This document shows, piece by piece, positions 1-36,620 of a stretch of DNA of 64,000 nt (position 1 is its first letter; every line of letters starts with the position of its first letter). This stretch comes from a virus (lineage: Duplodnaviria > Heunggongvirae > Uroviricota > Caudoviricetes): IMG/VR virus record IMGVR_UViG_3300035696_002535. One strand, given 5' to 3'. Position numbers and translations under genes: made by a program. Below the pieces are notes generated by a model. That model was not told the DNA's origin. It made no database searches and saw only the letters and a list, made by a program, of their open reading frames with translations.

Positions 1-522
1 CTTGATAGACTTAATAAATATACGCTGATTTTAAGAAAATGTCAAGGTTTGTTTTTGTTGTTCGCTTTCATCCCACGGCTAAAGCCGTGGGCTTTCCCGC
101 TCACAGATCGTAAAAAAGGCCATCATAAGTTTAATCGTATGAGACATAATTTTATCTATTCACAACTTCTTATAGCAATTGAACGCAGGGCTATTAAGGA
201 CGGGGTTGAGATCCGTAAGGTTACTCCTGCCTTCACTTCTATAGTAGGAATTTTAAAATACCAAGAACAGTACTCATTAAATCGTCACACAGCAGCGGCC
301 TTTGTTATTGGCCGTCGCGGATTAGGAATAGTAGAAAAGATAAGGGTTAGGTTAGAACCGTTAAAGAACGAGAAGCTGAACCTTGCAGGAAGAGGCTTCA
401 AGATTGCTTTGACGGCGAAGGCTTACTCCTACTTCAAACACTTATATAGAGTAGTTGAAGTTCAAACGCCAGCGGTCACACCGCCGTGCCTTAGTCCTCC
501 ATTGTTGGGGAATACGGCATAA
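1..522 (+). CDS. TnpB-like (IS200/IS605 OrfB family) C-terminal fragment; reading frame is open from nt 1, so the 5' end lies outside the window
   Basis: The frame has no stop back to position 1. '...IERRAIKDGVEIRKVTPAFTS' and 'NRHTAAAFVIGRRGLG' resemble the TnpB RuvC-III/C-terminal signature (dPxyTSq ... DaDvNAAxNIxrRG). The usual CxxC..CxxC zinc finger between them is missing. Confidence 0.4.
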   Translation, partial: LDRLNKYTLILRKCQGLFLLFAFIPRLKPWAFPLTDRKKGHHKFNRMRHNFIYSQLLIAIERRAIKDGVEIRKVTPAFTSIVGILKYQEQYSLNRHTAAAFVIGRRGLGIVEKIRVRLEPLKNEKLNLAGRGFKIALTAKAYSYFKHLYRVVEVQTPAVTPPCLSPPLLGNTA

Positions 523-563
523 GTTAGTTCACAGAATATTAATGTTCTGGGGCTAATGGTAAT

Positions 564-629
564 CGGACTCTATTTCTGGTCGAGTCCGTATGAGGTTTAA
601 AGACCTCATCTAGGAGTTGAAAGGACTCC
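564..629 (+). ncRNA. three consecutive short stem-loops directly 3' of the TnpB-like ORF; candidate IS right-end / guide-RNA (omega-RNA)-like scaffold
   Basis: Inverted repeats cggactc...gagtccg (564-588), gaggt...acctc (592-607) and ggagt...actcc (613-629) lie in an otherwise non-coding 150 nt gap. Confidence 0.3.
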
Positions 630-672
630 TTTGGGAACTCTTGAGTTTCTAAACCAGATTTAGGAATGATTT

Positions 673-2385
673 TTATTTCATATTTACGGAGTAAAGTTTA
701 TTACTACTAATGAACATTACAGACATACCATCAGTAAGGAGTCTTGTTGACGATGAAAACGGGGGTGAATCAAATTCATATATTTTGTTATTGTCTTTAA
801 ATACTTCAGCTTTATAATCTTCTATAGCTAAGACACACACTCCTTTAGCATTTACTGTAAAGTTAATACTATCTAAATTCGTATCTTCAGTTTTTCTACA
901 GCTATAAATAGTGTGCAGTCCGTCGAACTGTATAACAAATCGACTATACTTGCCCTTCTTCTCAGCCATCAGAACACAGAAACAATTTTCGTATTTGGCA
1001 TCAACAATTCGATAGCCATCGAGCTCCGGGACAGGAATGTTAATGCAAGCTCCAGGCCTGAAGGGTATTGCTATCCAGCACTTGCCCAGTATGTCCTGTA
1101 CAGCTACCCCTTTAAACAGTTTGGTAGTTGACTCGAAGACATTGCAGAGCCTTTTAACCATGTGTATGGGTTTGTTGAAGTTCTCAAAAAAGTTCTCATA
1201 AAGAGTGTCTCCTCGGAGAGCGTAGAGTCTACCGTTGAACTCCATGGCATCATCAGCGTTTATGGTGCCATATTCTGTACCTTTTTCATCTTTGAAGTAT
1301 ATAGTATCTCCATTTTTAAAAATCAGTAAAGGGCTACTATTTGGAACATCTACCAGGCCTATTCTAGGAAGTTTTGGGAGACTGGGATCAAAAAACTTCA
1401 TTGGACCTTTAAAAACAGCCCTAGAGGTCACATAATAAGTATATCCGTTAAAAAAGGATACAGATCTAATTAAGTCTTTAAATTCTGCTAGTTCTTTGAC
1501 TTCAAACTTACCTGTGCTGGAAGCTAACGTAGGACGTATTATAGCTACTGTAATAACGCCGTCTGGCATAGGGGGTATACTTCTATCCCCCTGCTCGAAG
1601 ATCGATTTAAACCAATCTAAATGAGGCTTGGGTATGGTGTCAAATTTAGGGCAATTTGGAGGTAATTTAGCATCTTTATTAAAAACTGATATATTTTTTT
1701 CCATTCTCTCAGGCCATTGATTGGGTTGAAATGAAGGATGACCCCCCCTGTATGGATGAACTCCCATGTAGAGCTGAAAGGCTACCACTCCAAAGCTGAA
1801 CCAATCGGATAGTTCAGTCCATTGGTTGTTTTTAACCTTTCGGTCTCGTATGGACTCCATGATGGCTGTAGCATGGTGGGAGGGAGTCTGATAAGAATCA
1901 ACATCAATGAAATAAGGCAGGGTGTAGGTCGCCTTATCCATTAGAAAGTTCATCTCGTTAAAGTCGACTACTAATATTTTATTTGTGTGAATGCTCAGAA
2001 GGGTCTCTTGCATTTTTCGGACGAGCTTGACCACCATATCGGGGGAGATGTTGTTATCGTTCTTAAAATTCTGGTTGAAGAGCCTGCACAGGAACTCCGT
2101 ATCCTTGATATAGAGCATGCTGAAACCGATAGGAACTTTCTGTCTTTTGAAATCAAAGAGGACATCTAAGGGACCAAGAATATTATTGTATTGAGAAAGA
2201 GCCTGCAGCTCTTGAATCTTATCGACCGGTATCATCTTCTTTTCGTCGTGGTATATCTTGTAGGCCTTTCCGCCTTTTTTTAGGATAGTCCCCTCACCAC
2301 CAGCTGCGACATAACAAGTATCCGTAAAGGTTTCGGTGCCTTTACCCTGGACTACAAGCGTGAAAGGATAGGAGATTGTAGGCAT
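673..2385 (-). CDS. hypothetical 570 aa protein; weak protein-kinase-like features only
   Basis: Long ORF with SD-like context. 'AAGGEGTILKKGGKAYKIYH' and 'HTNKILVVDFNE' loosely recall a kinase glycine loop and catalytic/DFG region. No secure motif. Confidence 0.3.
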   Translation of the reverse strand: MPTISYPFTLVVQGKGTETFTDTCYVAAGGEGTILKKGGKAYKIYHDEKKMIPVDKIQELQALSQYNNILGPLDVLFDFKRQKVPIGFSMLYIKDTEFLCRLFNQNFKNDNNISPDMVVKLVRKMQETLLSIHTNKILVVDFNEMNFLMDKATYTLPYFIDVDSYQTPSHHATAIMESIRDRKVKNNQWTELSDWFSFGVVAFQLYMGVHPYRGGHPSFQPNQWPERMEKNISVFNKDAKLPPNCPKFDTIPKPHLDWFKSIFEQGDRSIPPMPDGVITVAIIRPTLASSTGKFEVKELAEFKDLIRSVSFFNGYTYYVTSRAVFKGPMKFFDPSLPKLPRIGLVDVPNSSPLLIFKNGDTIYFKDEKGTEYGTINADDAMEFNGRLYALRGDTLYENFFENFNKPIHMVKRLCNVFESTTKLFKGVAVQDILGKCWIAIPFRPGACINIPVPELDGYRIVDAKYENCFCVLMAEKKGKYSRFVIQFDGLHTIYSCRKTEDTNLDSINFTVNAKGVCVLAIEDYKAEVFKDNNKIYEFDSPPFSSSTRLLTDGMSVMFISSNKLYSVNMK

Positions 2386-2388
2386 TAT

Positions 2389-2580
2389 TTACCTCAATGC
2401 CTCAGCAAGATGTTCTGTCTCAACAAGAGCAATTTGTTTCGTATCTTTTATTAATAACGGAGTCCAGCAAACTCCGGGATCTCCTATGGTCACTTCAGTG
2501 TTATCTGGTATCTCAATTCTTTCGTAATTATGACATTCCTTATTTACCGCATCCCGAAGTTCCCGCGCTTCCATGTTCAC
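2389..2580 (-). CDS. small hypothetical protein (N-terminus MEARE.. shared with next gene)
   Basis: 63 aa ORF. Its start region duplicates the start region of the YopX gene. Confidence 0.3.
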   Translation of the reverse strand: MNMEARELRDAVNKECHNYERIEIPDNTEVTIGDPGVCWTPLLIKDTKQIALVETEHLAEALR

Positions 2581-2987
2581 CCCTTTAGTAGATTTGGATT
2601 TTCGTGGATGTTGCCGAGGATTGTAGGTTGTTCCACTCTTGAAAGCAAATTTAAGAACTTCCCATCCTTATCCGCAATGATGAAATACGCTCCAGTATTG
2701 CTCCATTCTACAGCCCCTTCGTAATCACATGGCTCGCCTCGTTCCAATTTGATGGGGTCATACGAAGAAACAATATCCCCCTCGTAAATGGGATTCCCTT
2801 TCCTGTCGAGAAGGCCGGTGAATTGCTCCAAAATATATTCACCGTTTTCCCATGTTCGATCATAGCGATGCAGGGATGGCATTACCCCCTTGTTGAAATA
2901 GGGATGATAATTGTCCATTATAAAACCCTGAATCCAAGCCTGATGCTTGATTTCCCACGCCCGAAACTTGATTTCCCGCGCTTCCAT
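2577..2987 (-). CDS. YopX-family phage protein
   Basis: N-terminal 'MEAREIKFRAWEIK', central 'EQFTGLLDRKGNPIYEGDIV' and C-terminal 'ILGNIHENPNLL' match the YopX family pattern (FRAW.. / QyTGLkDknGkeIyEGDiv / GNihenpeLL). Confidence 0.75.
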   Translation of the reverse strand: MEAREIKFRAWEIKHQAWIQGFIMDNYHPYFNKGVMPSLHRYDRTWENGEYILEQFTGLLDRKGNPIYEGDIVSSYDPIKLERGEPCDYEGAVEWSNTGAYFIIADKDGKFLNLLSRVEQPTILGNIHENPNLLKG

Positions 2988-3088
2988 GTGAGCCTCCTAT
3001 GTCAATTCTAGATGCCCCGCAATGTAGAGTCGCGTTATCCTGCCGCGAAGCGGCGTGATGAGGCGATGGATACAAGAACCCCGCGACT

Positions 3089-3334
3089 TTAGTCGCGGGA
3101 GTACGTCAGATCTTCCAGTATAGGAAACCATACTTTGACATTCTCAACATTTTTAAACCATTTTCTGACAGGTTTGTTATCAACATAAATGTAGCCGTCA
3201 TTCTCGTACTTTCCTCCAGAAATAAACTTATTGTTGAATAAAAGAGATAAAGCGGTTGTATCGCTAGGGATTTCAGCTTGCATACCAGCTATGGTAAGTA
3301 TTGATCCTTCTCTGCTGAATACTGTTTCTTCCAT
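3089..3334 (-). CDS. hypothetical protein
   Basis: 81 aa ORF in operon orientation; no recognisable motif. Confidence 0.35.
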   Translation of the reverse strand: MEETVFSREGSILTIAGMQAEIPSDTTALSLLFNNKFISGGKYENDGYIYVDNKPVRKWFKNVENVKVWFPILEDLTYSRD

Positions 3335-3478
3335 AAGTTACCACCAGATTCCTTTAATAAAGGTAATTAATACAGCTCCCCCGACTATTATCAGGACGCA
3401 AAGAACGAGGGCTGAGGGGAGATTTATGCTACCCCGACAAACATGCGCTACAAGTGAATCAAGATTCATCGGAATTCC

Positions 3479-4366
3479 TTAATCTAATATGATGGCTGCG
3501 CAGGACACGTCATCATAATGGATGATGTGCTTCGCACGATTTTCTTTTTCCAGGCTCTTCATACGTCTTACGACGAACTCCCCGACCGGACTTTTATAAG
3601 TTGCTATGTTCGGGTAAATGTCTGATAGAGGAAAGACCTTGTCGTTCGTAAGGAATTCCTCGCTTCTAGGATCAAACTGGAAACTTTGCAAGCCGTCAGA
3701 AGAAACAACTATTTGGGATACGCTTGGTTTTCCGATGATCGTCCAGAGTTCACGTGAAAATCCAGTTTGATGCCCCCAATGATGAAAATCGTTTCTCCAG
3801 TCTGTATCCCCTATTCTGGGATCATTCATTGGAAAATTAAACACATTCTCTGTAATATGCATTCCACTGTCTTTTTGCTGGGCAGAATAAGCCAGATCTT
3901 TTTCGTGCGACATTTGATAAGATAGATAATAAGGCATGTTGTTGTCATAGGAAATACTGATGGTTCGTACAACACCATCCGTGTATTTGATAATAAAGTT
4001 TCCATCTCCCCAGCCGAATATGAAAGGGGCAATCCCCCTGTAAACAACAGATGCGAGGAGGGTCGCATCAAAAGCATCCACGGAGAGATTAAGAGAACCT
4101 TTAACTTCTAGGCATTTTTTGATGATCAGTTCTTTCAACGTCGGAACATATTCCTGATAACCTATAGCTTGATTTCTTTGTTGAAGATATAGTATAGCAT
4201 CCCTGGCGATTACTGACACTAACCGAGCACCTATATCGGTGTTCGGGGAAGAAGTGCAGCCGTCTGAAATGATAGCATAGGCAAACTCATCATCTGCGTA
4301 AGCAAGAGCATAGTCCTGACAGACTTGGTGAGTTGAACCTATTTCAAAATAAGAATCTGCTTTCAT
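3479..4366 (-). CDS. PP2C-family Ser/Thr protein phosphatase-like
   Basis: 'AIISDGCTSS...GARLVSVIA', 'VVSSDGLQSF' and C-terminal 'DDVSCAAIILD' resemble PP2C motifs (xADGMGG, lcSDGLw, DNiTvvvv). Confidence 0.55.
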   Translation of the reverse strand: MKADSYFEIGSTHQVCQDYALAYADDEFAYAIISDGCTSSPNTDIGARLVSVIARDAILYLQQRNQAIGYQEYVPTLKELIIKKCLEVKGSLNLSVDAFDATLLASVVYRGIAPFIFGWGDGNFIIKYTDGVVRTISISYDNNMPYYLSYQMSHEKDLAYSAQQKDSGMHITENVFNFPMNDPRIGDTDWRNDFHHWGHQTGFSRELWTIIGKPSVSQIVVSSDGLQSFQFDPRSEEFLTNDKVFPLSDIYPNIATYKSPVGEFVVRRMKSLEKENRAKHIIHYDDVSCAAIILD

Positions 4367-4979: not shown

Positions 4980-5501
4980 TTAATCCCCTCCTCCACCATC
5001 ACCTCCGCCCCCATCCCCTCCCCCACCACCATCGCTGCTTCCACCATTGGTGCTTGTACCTTCGCTGCCGGTGCCCTCGGTGCTGACGCCCTCATTACTC
5101 TCATTGGATCCAGTTTCAGTTTCTGTTTCTGTTTCAGGAGATCCTTCTTGTTCTATTTCATGAGAGACTTCCTCGGGCAACTGCTCTTCTTTGACTTCTG
5201 CTTCCGGAAGTTCTTTTGCTTCTGGTTCTTTTATTTCTTCTTTGATCTCTTCAGGAACTCCTTGTTTTGATTCTGCCCATTTTACAGAAGAAAAATTCGT
5301 GATGGGCGTAGGAGATCTGTAATAAAAGCAGCTATTGTTGTTCATGTACATAATGTAATCATACTCATCGAGAGGGCTGGTTACACTATTAGTCGCCTGT
5401 GCCGCCGCCTTGAGGATTTTGTAGCAATGAATTTTGTGCTCTTTGTTTAAAGAACAACAAATAAACAGGGCCAATGTAATTACAAACAATTTTTTTAGCA
5501 T
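4980..5501 (-). CDS. secreted/lipoprotein-like acidic low-complexity protein (ETETETGS..., C-terminal GGGGD repeats)
   Basis: N-terminal hydrophobic signal 'MLKKLFVITLALFICCS'; Glu-rich middle; Gly/Asp repeat tail. Confidence 0.5.
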   Translation of the reverse strand: MLKKLFVITLALFICCSLNKEHKIHCYKILKAAAQATNSVTSPLDEYDYIMYMNNNSCFYYRSPTPITNFSSVKWAESKQGVPEEIKEEIKEPEAKELPEAEVKEEQLPEEVSHEIEQEGSPETETETETGSNESNEGVSTEGTGSEGTSTNGGSSDGGGGGDGGGGDGGGGD

Positions 5502-5511
5502 TGGTATACTC

Positions 5512-6165
5512 CTATTTCTTTTCCTCTTTGTTGCTTAGGTTTTCTTTCTTTTCTACTTTGAGCTCCACGGTAGGTTCTCCGGTACTCCTCTGACCAAGAG
5601 GATTTTCATCCATGTTAAAAAAATCAAGGAAACGCTTCATGCCAAAAATAGACTCTCCACCGATAAAAACCCAGCCTTCGAGGGCTTTTATATAATACAA
5701 AAAGACTCGATCACGAATATACAGTGTCCCAGTTTGATTGTCCAAACTGAATTGATCTCCAGTAAAAACTGAAGAGACAGCCGCCTGAAGATCGGCCAGA
5801 GCAGTGCCTACTACCCTTGATTTGTATTTTATTACCATGACAACGACGCACCCTTTTATCTCACTCATATTGTCAATGGTATATGAAACAGGAATACGAT
5901 AAGAGTGATTATAAGTCTCAGGGGTAAAAGTAGCTGCTTCGGCTATGTCTCTACTCAATATGACATCCCCTGACTCACAGAAATCTTTGAACGCTAAGGG
6001 AGCAGTCGGATATCCTGTAACAGTTCCATTTAACAAGGGATTGTTAGTCAAAGCCGTATCAAAAGCTGATTTAAACTTTGACCATAGACTAGGAGCAGGA
6101 GCACTCGGTTCTGAAAAAGAGCCACAGACGCACACCAACATAACCACAAGTAGCTTTTTGAACAT
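5512..6165 (-). CDS. putative lipoprotein, unknown function
   Basis: Signal peptide with a lipobox-like 'LVCVCGS'. Confidence 0.5.
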   Translation of the reverse strand: MFKKLLVVMLVCVCGSFSEPSAPAPSLWSKFKSAFDTALTNNPLLNGTVTGYPTAPLAFKDFCESGDVILSRDIAEAATFTPETYNHSYRIPVSYTIDNMSEIKGCVVVMVIKYKSRVVGTALADLQAAVSSVFTGDQFSLDNQTGTLYIRDRVFLYYIKALEGWVFIGGESIFGMKRFLDFFNMDENPLGQRSTGEPTVELKVEKKENLSNKEEKK

Positions 6166-6292
6166 TGGAACCCCAGTTAGTTAAAGTTATAAGTAAAGGT
6201 TGCGTAGGAATTCACAACAATGAACTTCAAAGGGCGCTAACCCTATGTGCTATTACATCTCTTTCTCATGCGATAACAACCCTACGCAACCT

Positions 6293-6688
6293 CTATGCTA
6301 TTGTTTTAAATGACTTCGTTATTTTCGCTATTGTGCCCTGTGAGAGTTCAAACTTTCTAGCCAATTCCCTTGTTGAGAGTCCAGCTTGAAACAGTTTTTT
6401 GATACTGTAATTACGGGATTCTCTGAACCAACGGAGTGATTTGATACCGTACTTCTTTCGCCAGCGAAGAACGGTTTGGCCGGAAACACCGTACTGCAGA
6501 CCGATCATGTCGTCTGTCTTCCATATCTTCTGGAGCCGAAGAAGTTGTTTTTGAGTTGGAATTTTCATAGGTTTTAAACCTCCTGTGCTTGTGTATCTGT
6601 TTGGTTGCTCATACATATTAAAAGTGGGACGAGGATGTTTAAGCCTCAGATAATTTAATATTGGGCTCATGGCATTCGTCCCACTCAT
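6293..6688 (-). CDS. helix-turn-helix DNA-binding protein (start trimmed to the internal Met to avoid overlapping the vWA gene)
   Basis: Two HTH-like segments: 'IGLQYGVSGQTVLRWRKKYGI' and 'LSTRELARKFELSQGTIAKI'. Confidence 0.4.
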   Translation of the reverse strand: MSGTNAMSPILNYLRLKHPRPTFNMYEQPNRYTSTGGLKPMKIPTQKQLLRLQKIWKTDDMIGLQYGVSGQTVLRWRKKYGIKSLRWFRESRNYSIKKLFQAGLSTRELARKFELSQGTIAKITKSFKTIA

Positions 6689-6701: not shown

Positions 6702-7445
6702 TTAAAATGTGATCGGCTTCGAAGTTCCTCCGGTTCCCAACGCTTGGCTGGTTGACGAGACAGAAGCACTCGCAAACTGGGCGAACTTTGCCAAATTGTC
6801 CTTGGTGGCCTCGCCCATCTTTACAAACTGGTTAAGACCTGCTGCCTTGTGAAAATCTTCGCAGTACTTGATCACATCCTGTTCGTCCGAAGCCGCCACC
6901 AGGATGACGTTGATCGAATCAAGCTTCTCATCCTTTTTGATCTTGGTGATGGTCTTCCTGATCATGTCCGGATTCGCAACACGATTAATGTTGTTGGCTC
7001 CGTCCGTGATGATGAACAACACAGCATTGCAGGTGTAATCCATGCCGATGAGCTGTTCGCCGTAGGATTGGGTTGCTTCAAGGGACTCCTGGGTTGCTTC
7101 GTAAAGAGCCGTCAGTCCAGCAGGCTGGATGGATCCGTTGTAGTCGGTTTCATTGATGTTACGGAGCTCTTTGTAACCATGTATCTCTGTAATATCATCG
7201 TTGAAGCCAACTACCCGCATAGTAAGCTCCCCACTATTGGGATGCTTCTTACAGGCTCTCACGACTTCGACGCACATCTTCTCCATGTCGTCCTTGTAAT
7301 CCGTGATTGAAGGTGACATGTCGATAACAAGGGTGACAAGTGTGTACTTCGAGGCACCGAGGGTGGCTACGGTCTGGCCGCTGTACGTGTACTGGTGTAC
7401 AGTCTTGTGGGTTTCCATGGGCGTTAACCCCATCATTTTTGGCAT
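6702..7445 (-). CDS. von Willebrand factor A (vWA) domain protein
   Basis: MIDAS-like 'LVIDMSPSI' (DxSxS) plus 'LFIITDGANN', typical of vWA domains. Confidence 0.6.
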   Translation of the reverse strand: MPKMMGLTPMETHKTVHQYTYSGQTVATLGASKYTLVTLVIDMSPSITDYKDDMEKMCVEVVRACKKHPNSGELTMRVVGFNDDITEIHGYKELRNINETDYNGSIQPAGLTALYEATQESLEATQSYGEQLIGMDYTCNAVLFIITDGANNINRVANPDMIRKTITKIKKDEKLDSINVILVAASDEQDVIKYCEDFHKAAGLNQFVKMGEATKDNLAKFAQFASASVSSTSQALGTGGTSKPITF

Positions 7446-7487
7446 AATGTGCTCCTTAAGTAAAGGTTAATAGTTTAGTTTCAAAGC

Positions 7488-7736
7488 TTAGCTTTTAAGC
7501 TGTGCATCAACTGATACCTTTGAAGTTTTTTCAAAAACTTCTTCTAAGATACGTGATAGTCTGTTGCACTCGTTTTCCTTGTTACGAAGAACTTCGTCTT
7601 GTGAAAAAAGTCTCGCTTGCAAAGTTTCTACTTTTACTCTGTTTTCTTGAATTGCACATTTATAGCTTGTGAATGAAATAATACCAGCCAGAATCAGAAC
7701 TGCGACGCAAACGATGATTGCGATAATGACATCCAT
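7488..7736 (-). CDS. small membrane protein with coiled-coil tail
   Basis: N-terminal TM helix 'IIAIIVCVAVLILAGIISF'. Confidence 0.4.
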   Translation of the reverse strand: MDVIIAIIVCVAVLILAGIISFTSYKCAIQENRVKVETLQARLFSQDEVLRNKENECNRLSRILEEVFEKTSKVSVDAQLKS

Positions 7737-7758
7737 AGTGTACTCCTTAAGTAAAGAT

Positions 7759-8007
7759 TTATTCTGGAAATTTTGCTTCTTTCAAGTACTTTGCGGCAAT
7801 AAAATTTTTTGACAGTATATCTAGTAATTCCGGACTAATTTGTTGTTTCAGTTCTGATCGTGGTATGAAGCAACCTCCAGCTCGAACAATAGCACATTGT
7901 ATACTCTCAACAAAATCGTCACACCCATCACCAGAGTTGTCCATCTTTTCATAGAGTTGAACGAACTCATTTTTCTTAATCTCTTTTGGCAATTCTTTTG
8001 GAGCCAC
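7759..8007 (-). CDS. hypothetical protein
   Basis: ORF with an SD-like upstream context; no motif. Confidence 0.4.
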   Translation of the reverse strand: MAPKELPKEIKKNEFVQLYEKMDNSGDGCDDFVESIQCAIVRAGGCFIPRSELKQQISPELLDILSKNFIAAKYLKEAKFPE

Positions 8008-11441: not shown

Positions 11442-12051
11442 GATCAGAAGTGTCGACTATTGTCGTATCAGCCGTGGAATCAATGTCAGGAGGAATCACA
11501 ACATCTCCTAGATCACTGGAGATATCGACTTTTGATGTATCAGCTGTATCATTCTCGTACTTGGTCGGCCACCGGTCTTTTTGAGATGGAATGGTATAAA
11601 CATATGTATCAACCGTCATAACTTTTTTGATGATATTCTCAATTGTCAACCAATCACCCCCCGCGAGTACACAGCCTATCCTCGGCATGGCCACCGTCCA
11701 CCCATGTTCTAAAGCATGCTTGTATACATTAGTTAAACATTTTTCCACGGCATCATATCGTATTGGAGGAATTTTGCCTCTCCAACGGATCTCGTGCTGG
11801 GCAATCATATTCGCAACCATCACATCTTCTGCAAAAGGCACAAGTTGTATAGCGCCAAGTTCATATCCTCCTTCTGGCCCTTCAAGGGACCATTTCCGAT
11901 ATGCTTTTTCTGGATCTTTATTTTTCTTAGATAGAGCCATAACGAACCCAGCGCCCCACGCTCCGGGTACACAGTCGTTGCAGACGTGCGAGATTATAGC
12001 AGGCTTAACGATTGGTTCTGTTGCATCCCCGATAAGATAATGTAGTTCCAT
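11422..12051 (-). CDS. macro-domain protein (Poa1p/Macro_2-like ADP-ribose / ADP-ribose-1''-phosphate processing)
   Basis: 'IISHVCNDCVPGAWGAGFVMAL' matches the hhvCNc..mGaGiA signature of Poa1p-like macro domains. Confidence 0.5.
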   Translation of the reverse strand: MELHYLIGDATEPIVKPAIISHVCNDCVPGAWGAGFVMALSKKNKDPEKAYRKWSLEGPEGGYELGAIQLVPFAEDVMVANMIAQHEIRWRGKIPPIRYDAVEKCLTNVYKHALEHGWTVAMPRIGCVLAGGDWLTIENIIKKVMTVDTYVYTIPSQKDRWPTKYENDTADTSKVDISSDLGDVVIPPDIDSTADTTIVDTSDLGSFFN

Positions 12052-12052
12052 A

Positions 12053-12613
12053 TTAGCCTGCTTTCTGACTTGCCTCTAAAAATTCTAGATTCATTTCAAG
12101 ATGTTTTGATAGCCTCATTCTCTCCGGTCTGGTACCTACGTTAAAAATTGAGATACCCTTTTCTGCCGCTATCCGTAACGCCTGAGATGTGCCACCTTTA
12201 GTTACATACTTACTCCAAAACAGTACAGCAGAAACTGGAGTATTTAAATCTCTTCCCAATATCTGCAGACCATTTCTAGCATGTAAACATTTTGCTCCGT
12301 ATGATAAGTCAAACCATACCGGATGAAAATCTTCTGCCAAAGCAAAAGCCTGTTGTTTAATGGCATCGGGGATTTCTTTGCTCTTGAAATAGAGAGTGGA
12401 CTTGTTATCGTTAAATCCCTTCCAAGGAAGAAAGATTTCTTTCTCCCCTTTGCCTAGATCACAACCCTCTTCAAAAGCTTTGTCGGCACCATCTGCTCCG
12501 CCTGATCGGAGTACCCATCCTTTTTCCGCAAGTAGCTGACCGAGCTTTTTCATAATCTCAAGGACTTCAGAAGGCGTTTCCCTGGAGCCTATCCCGGCGT
12601 AATAGAGCTTCAT
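12053..12613 (-). CDS. DprA/Smf-like Rossmann-fold (SLOG superfamily) protein, stand-alone 186 aa
   Basis: 'YAGIGSRETP...VLRSGGADGADKAFEEG', 'CLHARNGLQILGR' and 'TKGGTSQALRIAAEKGISIF' follow the DprA Rossmann domain order (GSRxxS / SGxAxGxD / RNRiI / SGaLiTA). Confidence 0.55.
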   Translation of the reverse strand: MKLYYAGIGSRETPSEVLEIMKKLGQLLAEKGWVLRSGGADGADKAFEEGCDLGKGEKEIFLPWKGFNDNKSTLYFKSKEIPDAIKQQAFALAEDFHPVWFDLSYGAKCLHARNGLQILGRDLNTPVSAVLFWSKYVTKGGTSQALRIAAEKGISIFNVGTRPERMRLSKHLEMNLEFLEASQKAG

Positions 12614-35330: not shown

Positions 35331-36620
35331 TTAAGTACATCTGTGTGCTTTTAATATCTCGTATACCCTTCCAGGAGAACATTTTAAAAGTTTTGATATC
35401 TCAAATCTGTCTAGACGTTGTTTATGAAGACTTAGAATCCTATTTACGTCTATTTTGTTCTTACTCACCAAAGTGATACTCTTTTCTAAAATTTCTTTCT
35501 CATTGTCTTTTATGAAACCCACATCCGTATGCTCTATTTGATGGCAATTTCGGCACAGTACTGTGCACTTGTTTAACTCCTCTTTCACTTCCTCAGGGAT
35601 ATCATCTACGGTTTTCCAAACTTCGTCTATAATGTTATTACTTATCTTGAATGTTTTAGTTGTGTCATCTGTATGGTGAAACTCAAGAGAATCCAGACAT
35701 TTATTATATCCACAATAAGCACATCCACGGATATTTTTATACTCTAGACAAAGCTTTTTATTTAATATACTGCTATCTCTCTTCCTGTCTAAATGAAGCT
35801 CTCGGTGGCAATTTTGGCATAGTAAATCACATTTTTTGGCTTCTTCAAGTAGTTGCTCATATCTGACTTTACTCAATCTGGTGATATTGTCTTTTTTATC
35901 TTTCGGATTTCTGTGATGAAAGCATAGTACCCAAAATCTATCCTCAGAGCAAACCTGACATTTCCCTCCAGTATCCCTCACAAGTTTTAATTTTTTGGCC
36001 CAAATAAGAATTCTTCTGTTCTTGTTGTCCCTCCCCGTATCCCTACTTACTTTATTTCTTTTGTACACAGGAGTTGTTCTAACATAAGGTACTTTTTGTT
36101 TGCGACTTTTTTCTATAGCACAAAGTCTGCAACCTTTCCTCTTAGAAACATGGTTATTTGGTGTTTGAAAAAAGCTACCATGTATTTTACAAATAATTTC
36201 TACTTTGGTTAAAGCCGTTTTGTAGTGTACTCTACTATAGTCATATTTATTCCCGTGGACAGACACGGCATTTTCAAAGAACTTATCAGCAAAAGGTTTT
36301 ATATCAATTTTTTTACGGCAAAAAGGGCACCCCTGCCCTTTGTAGTGATTTCCTGGAGTAACTTCAAATTCCCCGTGTGTTTTACATAAAATTTTTAATT
36401 TCTTATGCCTTCCAGTGTAAACGGATTCGCTATAATCATATTTGTTTCCGTGTATCTCTCGTGCTTTAGCAGTAAAAAAATCAATGTCTTTCTTCTTCAT
36501 TTTTTGTTTGAACGGTTGGGTTAAGGATTGTTTTAACATCATATCCTCGTTTTTCGCACCATTCCCGTATAGCCTGCTCTGTAATTGCGAAGATCTTGAG
36601 TCCCTCTTTTTCAGACACAT
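35331..36620 (-). CDS. HNH homing endonuclease-like protein with two HNH motifs and duplicated N-terminal 'GNKYDYS...C..HG.F...P..H..G.GC..C' modules (true start likely near 36500)
   Basis: 'CQVCSEDRFWVLCFHHRNP...CQNCHRELH' and 'CAYCGY...LEFHHTDD...CRNCHQIEH'. Confidence 0.6.
   Translation of the reverse strand: MCLKKRDSRSSQLQSRLYGNGAKNEDMMLKQSLTQPFKQKMKKKDIDFFTAKAREIHGNKYDYSESVYTGRHKKLKILCKTHGEFEVTPGNHYKGQGCPFCRKKIDIKPFADKFFENAVSVHGNKYDYSRVHYKTALTKVEIICKIHGSFFQTPNNHVSKRKGCRLCAIEKSRKQKVPYVRTTPVYKRNKVSRDTGRDNKNRRILIWAKKLKLVRDTGGKCQVCSEDRFWVLCFHHRNPKDKKDNITRLSKVRYEQLLEEAKKCDLLCQNCHRELHLDRKRDSSILNKKLCLEYKNIRGCAYCGYNKCLDSLEFHHTDDTTKTFKISNNIIDEVWKTVDDIPEEVKEELNKCTVLCRNCHQIEHTDVGFIKDNEKEILEKSITLVSKNKIDVNRILSLHKQRLDRFEISKLLKCSPGRVYEILKAHRCT

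Follow-up and report, generated by a model that had tools for sequence, protein, structure and literature searches.

Right-hand part of a probable IS607-family transposon in a large phage, its zinc-finger-less tnpB apparently cut by a second mobile element

The window analysed here is the whole stretch of 64,000 nucleotides (nt) presented from the IMG/VR virus record IMGVR_UViG_3300035696_002535 (Caudoviricetes), and its first few hundred nucleotides hold the remains of a gene for TnpB, a protein of the RNA-guided nuclease type. In the most probable reading, a large phage carries an IS607-family transposon of which nt 110-657 are the right-hand part, and a second mobile element has cut its tnpB gene. 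The window copy, though broken, belongs to a known kind and amounts to mobile-DNA wreckage rather than a new system. A large phage as carrier fits the context, since the window also encodes a polymerase, an RNA ligase, an NAD synthetase, an HNH endonuclease and radical SAM proteins. Intact relatives comprise, in this order, a left end, a small open reading frame (ORF), tnpA, tnpB (~405 amino acids, aa), a scaffold of ~190 nt overlapping the tnpB end, and the right end. The coding features of the window copy are the following.

110-522, plus strand: last third of a tnpB gene from the clade that has His at RuvC-III and no zinc finger (tblastn, family alignments).
286-288, plus strand: CAC, encoding the His of SLNRHTAAA, which stands where RuvC-III has its catalytic Asp; it is shared by all of 35 diverse family members and is equivalent to H333 of P0043, a 411-aa relative.

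Frame 1 of the plus strand runs without a stop from nt 1 until a TAA at 520-522. Its translation includes ..VTPAFTS.. and ..NRHTAAAFVIGRRGLG.., with a C-terminal part reading ...RKVTPAFTSIVGILKYQEQYSLNRHTAAAFVIGRRGLG..., and no Cys occurs between PAFTS and NRH, so that the Cys4 finger is absent. An earlier reading, made from the sequence only, had seen TnpB C-terminal blocks and no Cys4 finger in this frame and had taken the protein for a TnpB relative. Both points stand, given a match to the NCBIfam model guided_TnpB (E=4.5e-6, 26 bits, under the 100-bit cutoff) and another to TIGR01766, together with the homologues and the structure of a full-length relative described below. The fragment gave no match in a Pfam search, and its lone PHROG match was spurious. 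By tblastn against the window, P0043 aligned over its residues 271-407 with 76% identity; the fragment starts just past the RuvC-II Glu, so that this residue and the RuvC-I Asp are both outside it. The frame had also been described as open to the window edge, which is correct for the frame itself, but homology to the family, at the DNA level too, begins only at nt ~110. Since nt 1-114 match unrelated contigs and family homology starts from ~110, the first 36 codons are a read-through of a non-coding element. At the other end, the alignment indicates that the last four tnpB codons before the stop are shifted by a 1-nt deletion, and the element terminus reads CCAGA where the usual form is CCAGG. 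The ratio of nonsynonymous to synonymous change (dN/dS) of the window copy against the family is 0.12, which is the family median, with dS saturated. Because there are no internal stops and dN/dS is at the family value, the break looks recent rather than a product of long-term erosion. With RuvC-I and RuvC-II missing, the predicted product cannot be a nuclease, and the window copy is to all appearances dead, with no evident function. Neither a second tnpB copy nor a recombinase was found across the 64-kb window.

The fragment belongs to a large family. A database search returned 42 homologues with the fragment as query and 624, from metagenomes, with a full-length relative, many of which carry the JGI label 'IS605 OrfB family transposase', and a profile search of 1.84 billion cluster representatives yielded 2888 clusters (50% identity) at E<=1e-3. 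Full-length members have 400-411 aa. Among the 35 diverse members D206 (GIDTNPDG), E267 (IVLEDLKF) and H333 (SLNRHTAAA) are invariant, and the zinc-finger Cys residues are absent throughout. The sequence-only reading had pointed to the RuvC D-E-D residues as a touchstone: the Asp and the Glu are indeed kept in the family, but an invariant His stands in place of the third Asp, and the window fragment itself is without D and E. The AlphaFold2 model of P0043 (pLDDT 82.8) has a RuvC (RNase H-like) fold and a WED/REC N-terminal half, the window corresponding to the last third only. In Foldseek it retrieved Cas12f, Cas12k, TnpB (8IAZ, 8EXA) and Fanzor2, with E down to 6.5e-12. A short helix (316-323) is found in the model where the zinc finger would sit, and H333 is placed at the start of the last RuvC helix. 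At the sequence level the resemblances are fainter: full-length members score 13-17 bits against Pfam Cas12f1-like_TNB, under its cutoff of 26.3, and the best hit of a PDB sequence search was Cas12f, at E=0.096 only. The N-terminus of homologues corresponds to the precomputed Pfam entry PF27229 (SSO2105_N), and a literature search on 'SSO2105' returned nothing.

A major TnpB clade, RIIIr-4, has been described as having no C4 zinc finger and a RuvC-III Asp changed to His, and as being well represented in viruses (Altae-Tran et al., PNAS 2023, PMC10691335). By these shared traits, no finger and Asp-to-His, the present family matches an RIIIr-4-type TnpB. The missing finger had previously been read as possible decay; as the invariant state of a large family that matches RIIIr-4, it is, on the alignments, ancestral to the lineage and a sign of neither decay nor miniaturisation. 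The closest genomic relative lies on a 168-kb contig binned as Thermoplasmatales, and several Clostridia genomes carry distant relatives in multiple copies. At least four family members occur on a single contig, L004 (ENA contig_105700, 496,551 bp): a frameshifted copy at 5205-6441, a 397-aa paralogue at 6803-7996, P0069 and P0149; nt 1-1268 of the same contig hold a topoisomerase gene with an intein/LAGLIDADG insertion. Among annotated phages, the nearest homologue, 564 aa long and labelled 'TnpB-family transposase', is that of the Thermus phage Lalka27b (PQ109077.1); it has no zinc finger and carries an Asp aligned to the His position (SLTKDVAAA). Directly 3' of its gene a ~30-nt repeat (GTTTCTCCCGTGCGCGCATGGAGGCACCG), annotated as CRISPR, occurs seven times, and the locus (2065-4144) looks like a phage-borne Cas12-like effector of the zinc-finger-less lineage.

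The type of transposon was read from related loci, of which three (L003-L005) were found through protein similarity and 28 (L011-L038) were collected by scanning JGI metagenomes with the motif of the first 3' hairpin (hp1, below). In L004 the protein encoded directly upstream of the frameshifted tnpB matches Resolvase (4e-19) and a MerR helix-turn-helix (HTH) domain (9e-12), and homologues of this recombinase are found directly upstream of tnpB, on the same strand, in eight loci (L004, L028, L015, L021, L023, L024, L025 and L031). Since a serine recombinase with a MerR-type HTH directly precedes the gene in these eight loci, the element is, by gene content, IS607-like and not of the IS200/IS605 type to which it had been tentatively assigned from the sequence. 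The recombinase is thus a property of the relatives, there being none within the 64 kb of the window. The right end reads ...CCAG, with G as the next base in 24 of 26 distinct flanks and A in the window, and the left boundary falls near CCAAATCC. Near-identical elements stand in differing flanks (L014, L015, L019), and the element is mobile.

Two further observations concern the elements of this group. A small conserved ORF of ~55-60 aa (e.g. MKVLKVTKESYQLEDGREFFFDE...) precedes tnpA inside the element, at ~880-1040 in L015, at ~4040-4190 in L004, and in L023, L021 and L028. In addition, 17 of the 26 distinct right-end flanks of L003-L038 have an ATG within 16 nt after ...CCAG (background 25%, binomial p = 1.5e-5), often as CCAGG-N4-9-ATG, so that elements tend to sit just 5' of a start codon; this preference perhaps reflects a GG or Shine-Dalgarno-like target choice by the serine recombinase.

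What precedes the tnpB fragment in the window appears to be the end of another element, in the opposite orientation, with these features.

1-109, minus strand: presumed end of a second mobile element, with IS608-type left-end geometry, extending left beyond the window.
17-45, minus strand: sigma-70-like promoter TTGACA-17-TATATT (11/12 matches), pointing left into the second element.
72-91, minus strand: subterminal hairpin CCCACGGC-TTTA-GCCGTGGG, 8 base pairs (bp), presumed TnpA-binding palindrome.
110-113, minus strand: TTAC, putative target/cleavage tetranucleotide at the junction of the two elements; GTAA on the plus strand, in the family-conserved tnpB codons GGT AAA.

Nt 1-114 of the window are 100% identical to nt 10-123 of L002, the start of an otherwise unrelated viral contig that belongs to a different genome and shares sequence with the window only as far as its nt 123. 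They are also 84% identical to an intergenic stretch of L007 (12450-12544), beyond which the sequence is unrelated, and the window, L002 and L007 share one boundary at which their similarity stops. Read on the minus strand, the flank ends in TTTAC at the junction; the element then begins with GATCTGTGAGCGGG and AAAG, the latter being a guide tetranucleotide at 95-92, directly 5' of the hairpin foot, and continues with the hairpin and the inward promoter. TTTAC precedes the element in three different flanks. The spacer between TTAC and AAAG is 18 nt in the window and 19 nt in L007, where the equivalent promoter is TTGACT-17-TATATT, and the 26-nt hairpin core recurs exactly in five other viral contigs. 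The rule for IS608 places the cleavage and insertion site 3' of a TTAC that stands 19 nt 5' of the left hairpin's foot, with the guide AAAG at this foot; on the right side, TCAA is found 10 nt 3' of the hairpin (PMC3201880). It is therefore fairly probable, from this geometry, that an IS608-type element or a short derivative of one was inserted into tnpB, in which case the 5' two-thirds of the gene should lie left of the window, beyond the second element. Two contigs break within 9 nt of each other inside the shared repeat, which fits an assembly break at a multi-copy sequence. A left-end hairpin upstream, for which the sequence-only reading had suggested looking, is thus present, but the element to which it belongs is a different one, lying on the opposite strand and interrupting the gene.

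The hairpin of L006, L008 and L010 has TTAC (TCAC in L006) 13 nt ahead of it, and ...AGTATGTCAA (TCAA) ends 10 nt past it. These hairpins were considered as right ends and rejected, the flanking TTAC and TCAA showing instead single-hairpin units of 43 nt, located at 2868-2918 in L006, ~12270-12320 in L008 and ~2635-2685 in L010. Each unit consists of TTAC, 13 nt, CCCACGGC-TTTA-GCCGTGGG and AGTATGTCAA; the hairpin is identical in the three otherwise unrelated viral contigs, and the units are intergenic, with no transposase nearby. They look like a REP (repetitive extragenic palindromic) or mini-IS200/IS605-type element in phage genomes. In L007 the same left-end module and promoter belong to a gene-free stretch of ~500 nt (12050-12560, minus strand) with several strong hairpins, including GAAGCCCCCGAC-TTTA-GTCGGGGGAG, which had no Rfam match and no match among GenBank phages by blastn; the stretch is possibly a non-autonomous IS200/IS605 derivative or a novel structured RNA.

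Nt 1-109 could instead be a phage cassette of hairpin and promoter, the 5' part of tnpB having been lost by an unrelated deletion or recombination. None of the six copies is seen to have a transposase beside it, in L006 and L008 the hairpin comes after the end of a gene in the manner of a terminator, and the module holds a strong promoter. Such a cassette would not, however, be expected to show a sharp boundary at TTTAC in three unrelated contexts, nor the IS608-like fit of spacing and guide (18-19 nt, AAAG/TTAC) with TCAA ending 10 nt past the hairpin in L006, L008 and L010. The identity of the 26-nt core across unrelated contigs, and the breaking of two contigs within 9 nt of each other, as happens in assembly at repeats, argue in the same direction, and this explanation is considered unlikely, with a modest chance of being right.

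At its other end the tnpB fragment runs into a structured region, made up as follows.

468-657, plus strand: putative scaffold and right end (RNAalifold, pair counts), overlapping the last 55 nt of the ORF.
564-588, plus strand: hp1, CGGACTC-TATTTCTGGTC-GAGTCCG, 7 bp, identical in L003-L005.
590-609, plus strand: hp2, 8 bp, varying in sequence among loci, with a hairpin at the same place in every copy.
612-630, plus strand: hp3, AGGAGTT-GAAAG-GACTCCT, 7 bp, its pairing kept in the variants GGATGAT..GGCATCC and GGGTGAT..GGCGCCC.
631-652, plus strand: hp4, a short form of a hairpin that is longer in most relatives.
646-657, plus strand: terminal TTTCTAAACCAG, the element end and the boundary between scaffold and would-be guide; similarity among loci stops here.
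658-677, plus strand: flank, the would-be guide if the RNA is made and used, placed by the TnpB paradigm and the drop in conservation; it overlaps the stop of a convergent gene.

The three perfect hairpins that had been noticed downstream of the frame are real, and hp4 adds a fourth. They form part of a scaffold of ~190 nt with seven local stems and a closing helix (468-471/557-560), in which stems 472-484, 486-520 and 523-557 overlap the ORF end and its stop and are followed by hp1-hp4 and a single-stranded ...UCUAAACCAG. Nt 460-660 fold with -73.4 kcal/mol, compared with -51.8 +/- 4.1 for shuffled sequences (z = -5.3; 0 of 200 shuffles as good), and in the alignment of the window with L003-L005 the non-coding stretch is more conserved than the tnpB gene. 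The stem and loop of hp1, from the fifth base on, were fixed by the search pattern for L011-L038, while the agreement of L003-L005 is independent of it. Covariation and pair counts were taken over 22 distinct loci: standard pairs fill 95.7% of the pair cells, as against 38-45% with slid partners, 16 pairs are changed on both sides, and none of 500 shuffles reaches the observed covariation. Even inside the ORF, an alternation between PAVTPP and PGLTAP tracks the compensatory GCGG..CCGC / GGGC..GCCC. A long-range pairing proposed by RNAalifold (columns 18-21/278-281) was dropped as unsupported, since its pairs never vary. G-U pairs are frequent, for instance at columns 43/53, 74/100 and 115/133, and would be A-C mismatches on the other strand; as they fit the plus strand only, they argue for a strand-specific plus molecule. 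The right end finishes sharply at ...TCTAAACCAG, its last ~12 nt being invariant, and 26 distinct flanks follow it.

The suggestion that the hairpins lie where a guide-RNA scaffold or a right end would be, and that related genomes might conserve them, is upheld by conservation, compensatory changes and a sharp end in the 22 distinct loci that share this architecture. A comparison with omega-RNA families had also been suggested, and an Rfam covariance search of window nt 1-800 gave chance-level matches only (best E=0.025, for the hairpin at nt 72-101). Two scans of IMG/VR with the hp1 motif and a megablast of window nt 1-3000 against GenBank phages returned no match. A scaffold with a sharp end is the expected signature of a TnpB omega-RNA and right end, to which the comparative data thus point.

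If this family works like the TnpBs studied so far, processing of the tnpB transcript would yield an omega-RNA from its 3' end, with a scaffold that binds TnpB and a 3' extension formed by the flank past the right end, here from nt 658 onward. The guide may direct the nuclease to element-free sites and so help the transposon to persist, and in the active site the His may act as a substitute, as in other RNase H-fold nucleases. In the window, the oppositely oriented IS608-type left end would have been inserted 3' of TTAC, cutting tnpB at codon ~271; the RNA/right-end module is structurally intact, and its RNA could act in trans only.

It might be argued that the stems act mainly as DNA, as the right-end recombination site of the serine recombinase. 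The ends of IS607 carry several short subterminal motifs bound by TnpA, the final ~12 nt are invariant here, and fragments consisting of the module only are common, as expected if the end serves mobilisation in trans. A recombinase that binds duplex DNA nevertheless gives no cause for compensatory changes in seven stems, and the G-U pairs point to a single-stranded plus molecule. As the main role of the stems this is quite unlikely, and the final few tens of bases can serve both as RNA and as recombination site.

Fragments of this kind are found in several loci. The RNA/right-end module is kept, with most or all of tnpB gone, in L015 (1037-2001), L016, L017 (6900-7102)/L037, L018 and L022, and L003 holds a similar fragment; L015 has the recombinase followed by a tnpB from which residues 49-364 are deleted, and L017/L037 retain the last ~190 nt only. 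The window fragment could be a domesticated or miniaturised RNA-guided protein, as the sequence-only reading had proposed, or, in a weaker form of the idea, its scaffold could be kept as a stand-alone guide RNA that serves in trans a full-length TnpB with its gene elsewhere. In favour of this are 137 codons without a stop, a family-typical dN/dS, an intact RNA module in the window, and the modules without a complete gene in L015, L016, L017/L037, L018 and L022. The fragment, however, is without RuvC-I, RuvC-II and the N-terminal RNA/DNA-binding half, its apparent N-terminus is a read-through, and no full-length partner is encoded in the 64 kb. With dS saturated, a recent break would leave dN/dS unchanged, and the end itself has gone from CCAGG to CCAGA. 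Moreover, full-length members are of normal size, near-identical elements lie in different flanks and the family is multi-copy in some genomes, so that domestication or miniaturisation finds no support; in either form the idea is very unlikely.

It has also been considered that the D-E-H TnpBs of this lineage are active RNA-guided nucleases that use the scaffold, and that scaffold-only remnants are kept to supply guides in trans, a combined proposition in which little faith is placed. If it were true, the remnants (those of the window, L015, L016, L017/L037, L018 and L022) could guide a full-length TnpB in the same cell, for example in cutting competing phages that lack the insertion.

That the hairpins are ordinary terminators in the 150-nt gap between convergent genes (ORF end at 522, minus-strand gene end at 673) is scarcely credible, since a scan of nt 1-900 finds no hairpin followed by a T-run, the stems travel with the tnpB 3' end in 22 loci with differing downstream genes, and the structure reaches 55 nt into the ORF with compensatory changes.

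Some points weigh against the reading of nt 110-657 as the right-hand part of an IS607-family transposon whose tnpB was cut by a second element. Both the TnpA body of the second element and the 5' part of tnpB would lie left of the window, outside it. The left-end-like module of L007 has no transposase anywhere nearby, and in L006 and L008 the hairpin stands alone downstream of genes, where it could act as a terminator. Assignment of the scaffold to RNA rather than to a structure at the DNA level depends on covariation and G-U pairs, just as the proposed RIIIr-4 placement depends on published traits rather than on a tree with clade members. Finally, no biochemical test of any His-variant member of the clade was found in the literature searched, and nuclease activity and guide use are put forward here by analogy.

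Two other genes of the window may be mentioned. The convergent gene at 673-2385 (minus strand), whose stop codon the would-be guide overlaps, encodes 570 aa, has no PHROG match and forms a singleton cluster in a collection of 15 billion proteins. At 35331-36620 (minus strand) a 429-aa protein with strong HNH homing-endonuclease matches is encoded, a gene of mobile-element type.

For annotation, it follows that a finger-less TnpB should be taken as a normal member of a large, little-studied branch and not as a decayed gene, and that part of the open frame at the window edge exists only because the frame runs on through the end of another element. The modest gain is a covariation-supported scaffold with a guide boundary for a D-E-H lineage that is linked to a serine recombinase and often found on large phage contigs, by which a zinc-finger-free candidate nuclease of ~405 aa becomes directly testable.

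Compared with known systems, nt 1-114 read on the minus strand resemble the left end of IS608 in the TTAC, the spacer of 18-19 nt, the AAAG at the hairpin foot and the inward promoter; they differ from it in the hairpin sequence and in the occurrence of single-hairpin 43-nt versions in other phage contigs, and a Y1 TnpA would lie beyond the window. The TnpBs of ISDra2 and ISFba1 (PDB 8EXA, 8IAZ) share the fold with the family studied here, and in them too the scaffold reaches into the 3' end of the gene and stops at the right end, with the flank as guide; unlike the family, they have a zinc finger and a D-E-D triad and belong to IS200/IS605 elements with a Y1 transposase, and the present scaffold bears no Rfam or sequence likeness to any curated RNA family. 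The best structural matches are Cas12f (type V-F) proteins (8J1J, 7WJU, E ~1e-11), similar in size and domain order, but no CRISPR array was found in the window or in the related loci examined, although the distant Thermus-phage homologue adjoins one. Wiegand et al. reportedly described in 2024 the TldRs, TnpB derivatives in which the C-terminal part of RuvC is altered and which have a 3' guide RNA, some being encoded in prophages; TldRs are without catalytic residues or mobility and are tied to fliC/oppF, whereas here Asp, Glu and His are invariant and the elements are mobile and linked to a recombinase. With RIIIr-4 the family has in common the absence of a C4 finger, the Asp-to-His change, the retained RuvC-I Asp and RuvC-II Glu, a viral distribution and a long, conserved stretch on the 3' side that could accommodate a guide RNA; the published description highlights an archaeal RHH/MazE-linked subgroup, whereas the relatives found here are linked to a serine recombinase, and the window copy is a fragment. 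The TnpB of the present elements, a zinc-finger-less His variant, and the small conserved ORF before tnpA set them apart from IS607, which they resemble in having tnpA and then tnpB on one strand, in a TnpA with a MerR-type HTH and a resolvase domain, and in the many non-autonomous copies with tnpB only; the right end, mostly ...CAGG, recalls the GG crossover dinucleotide of IS607.

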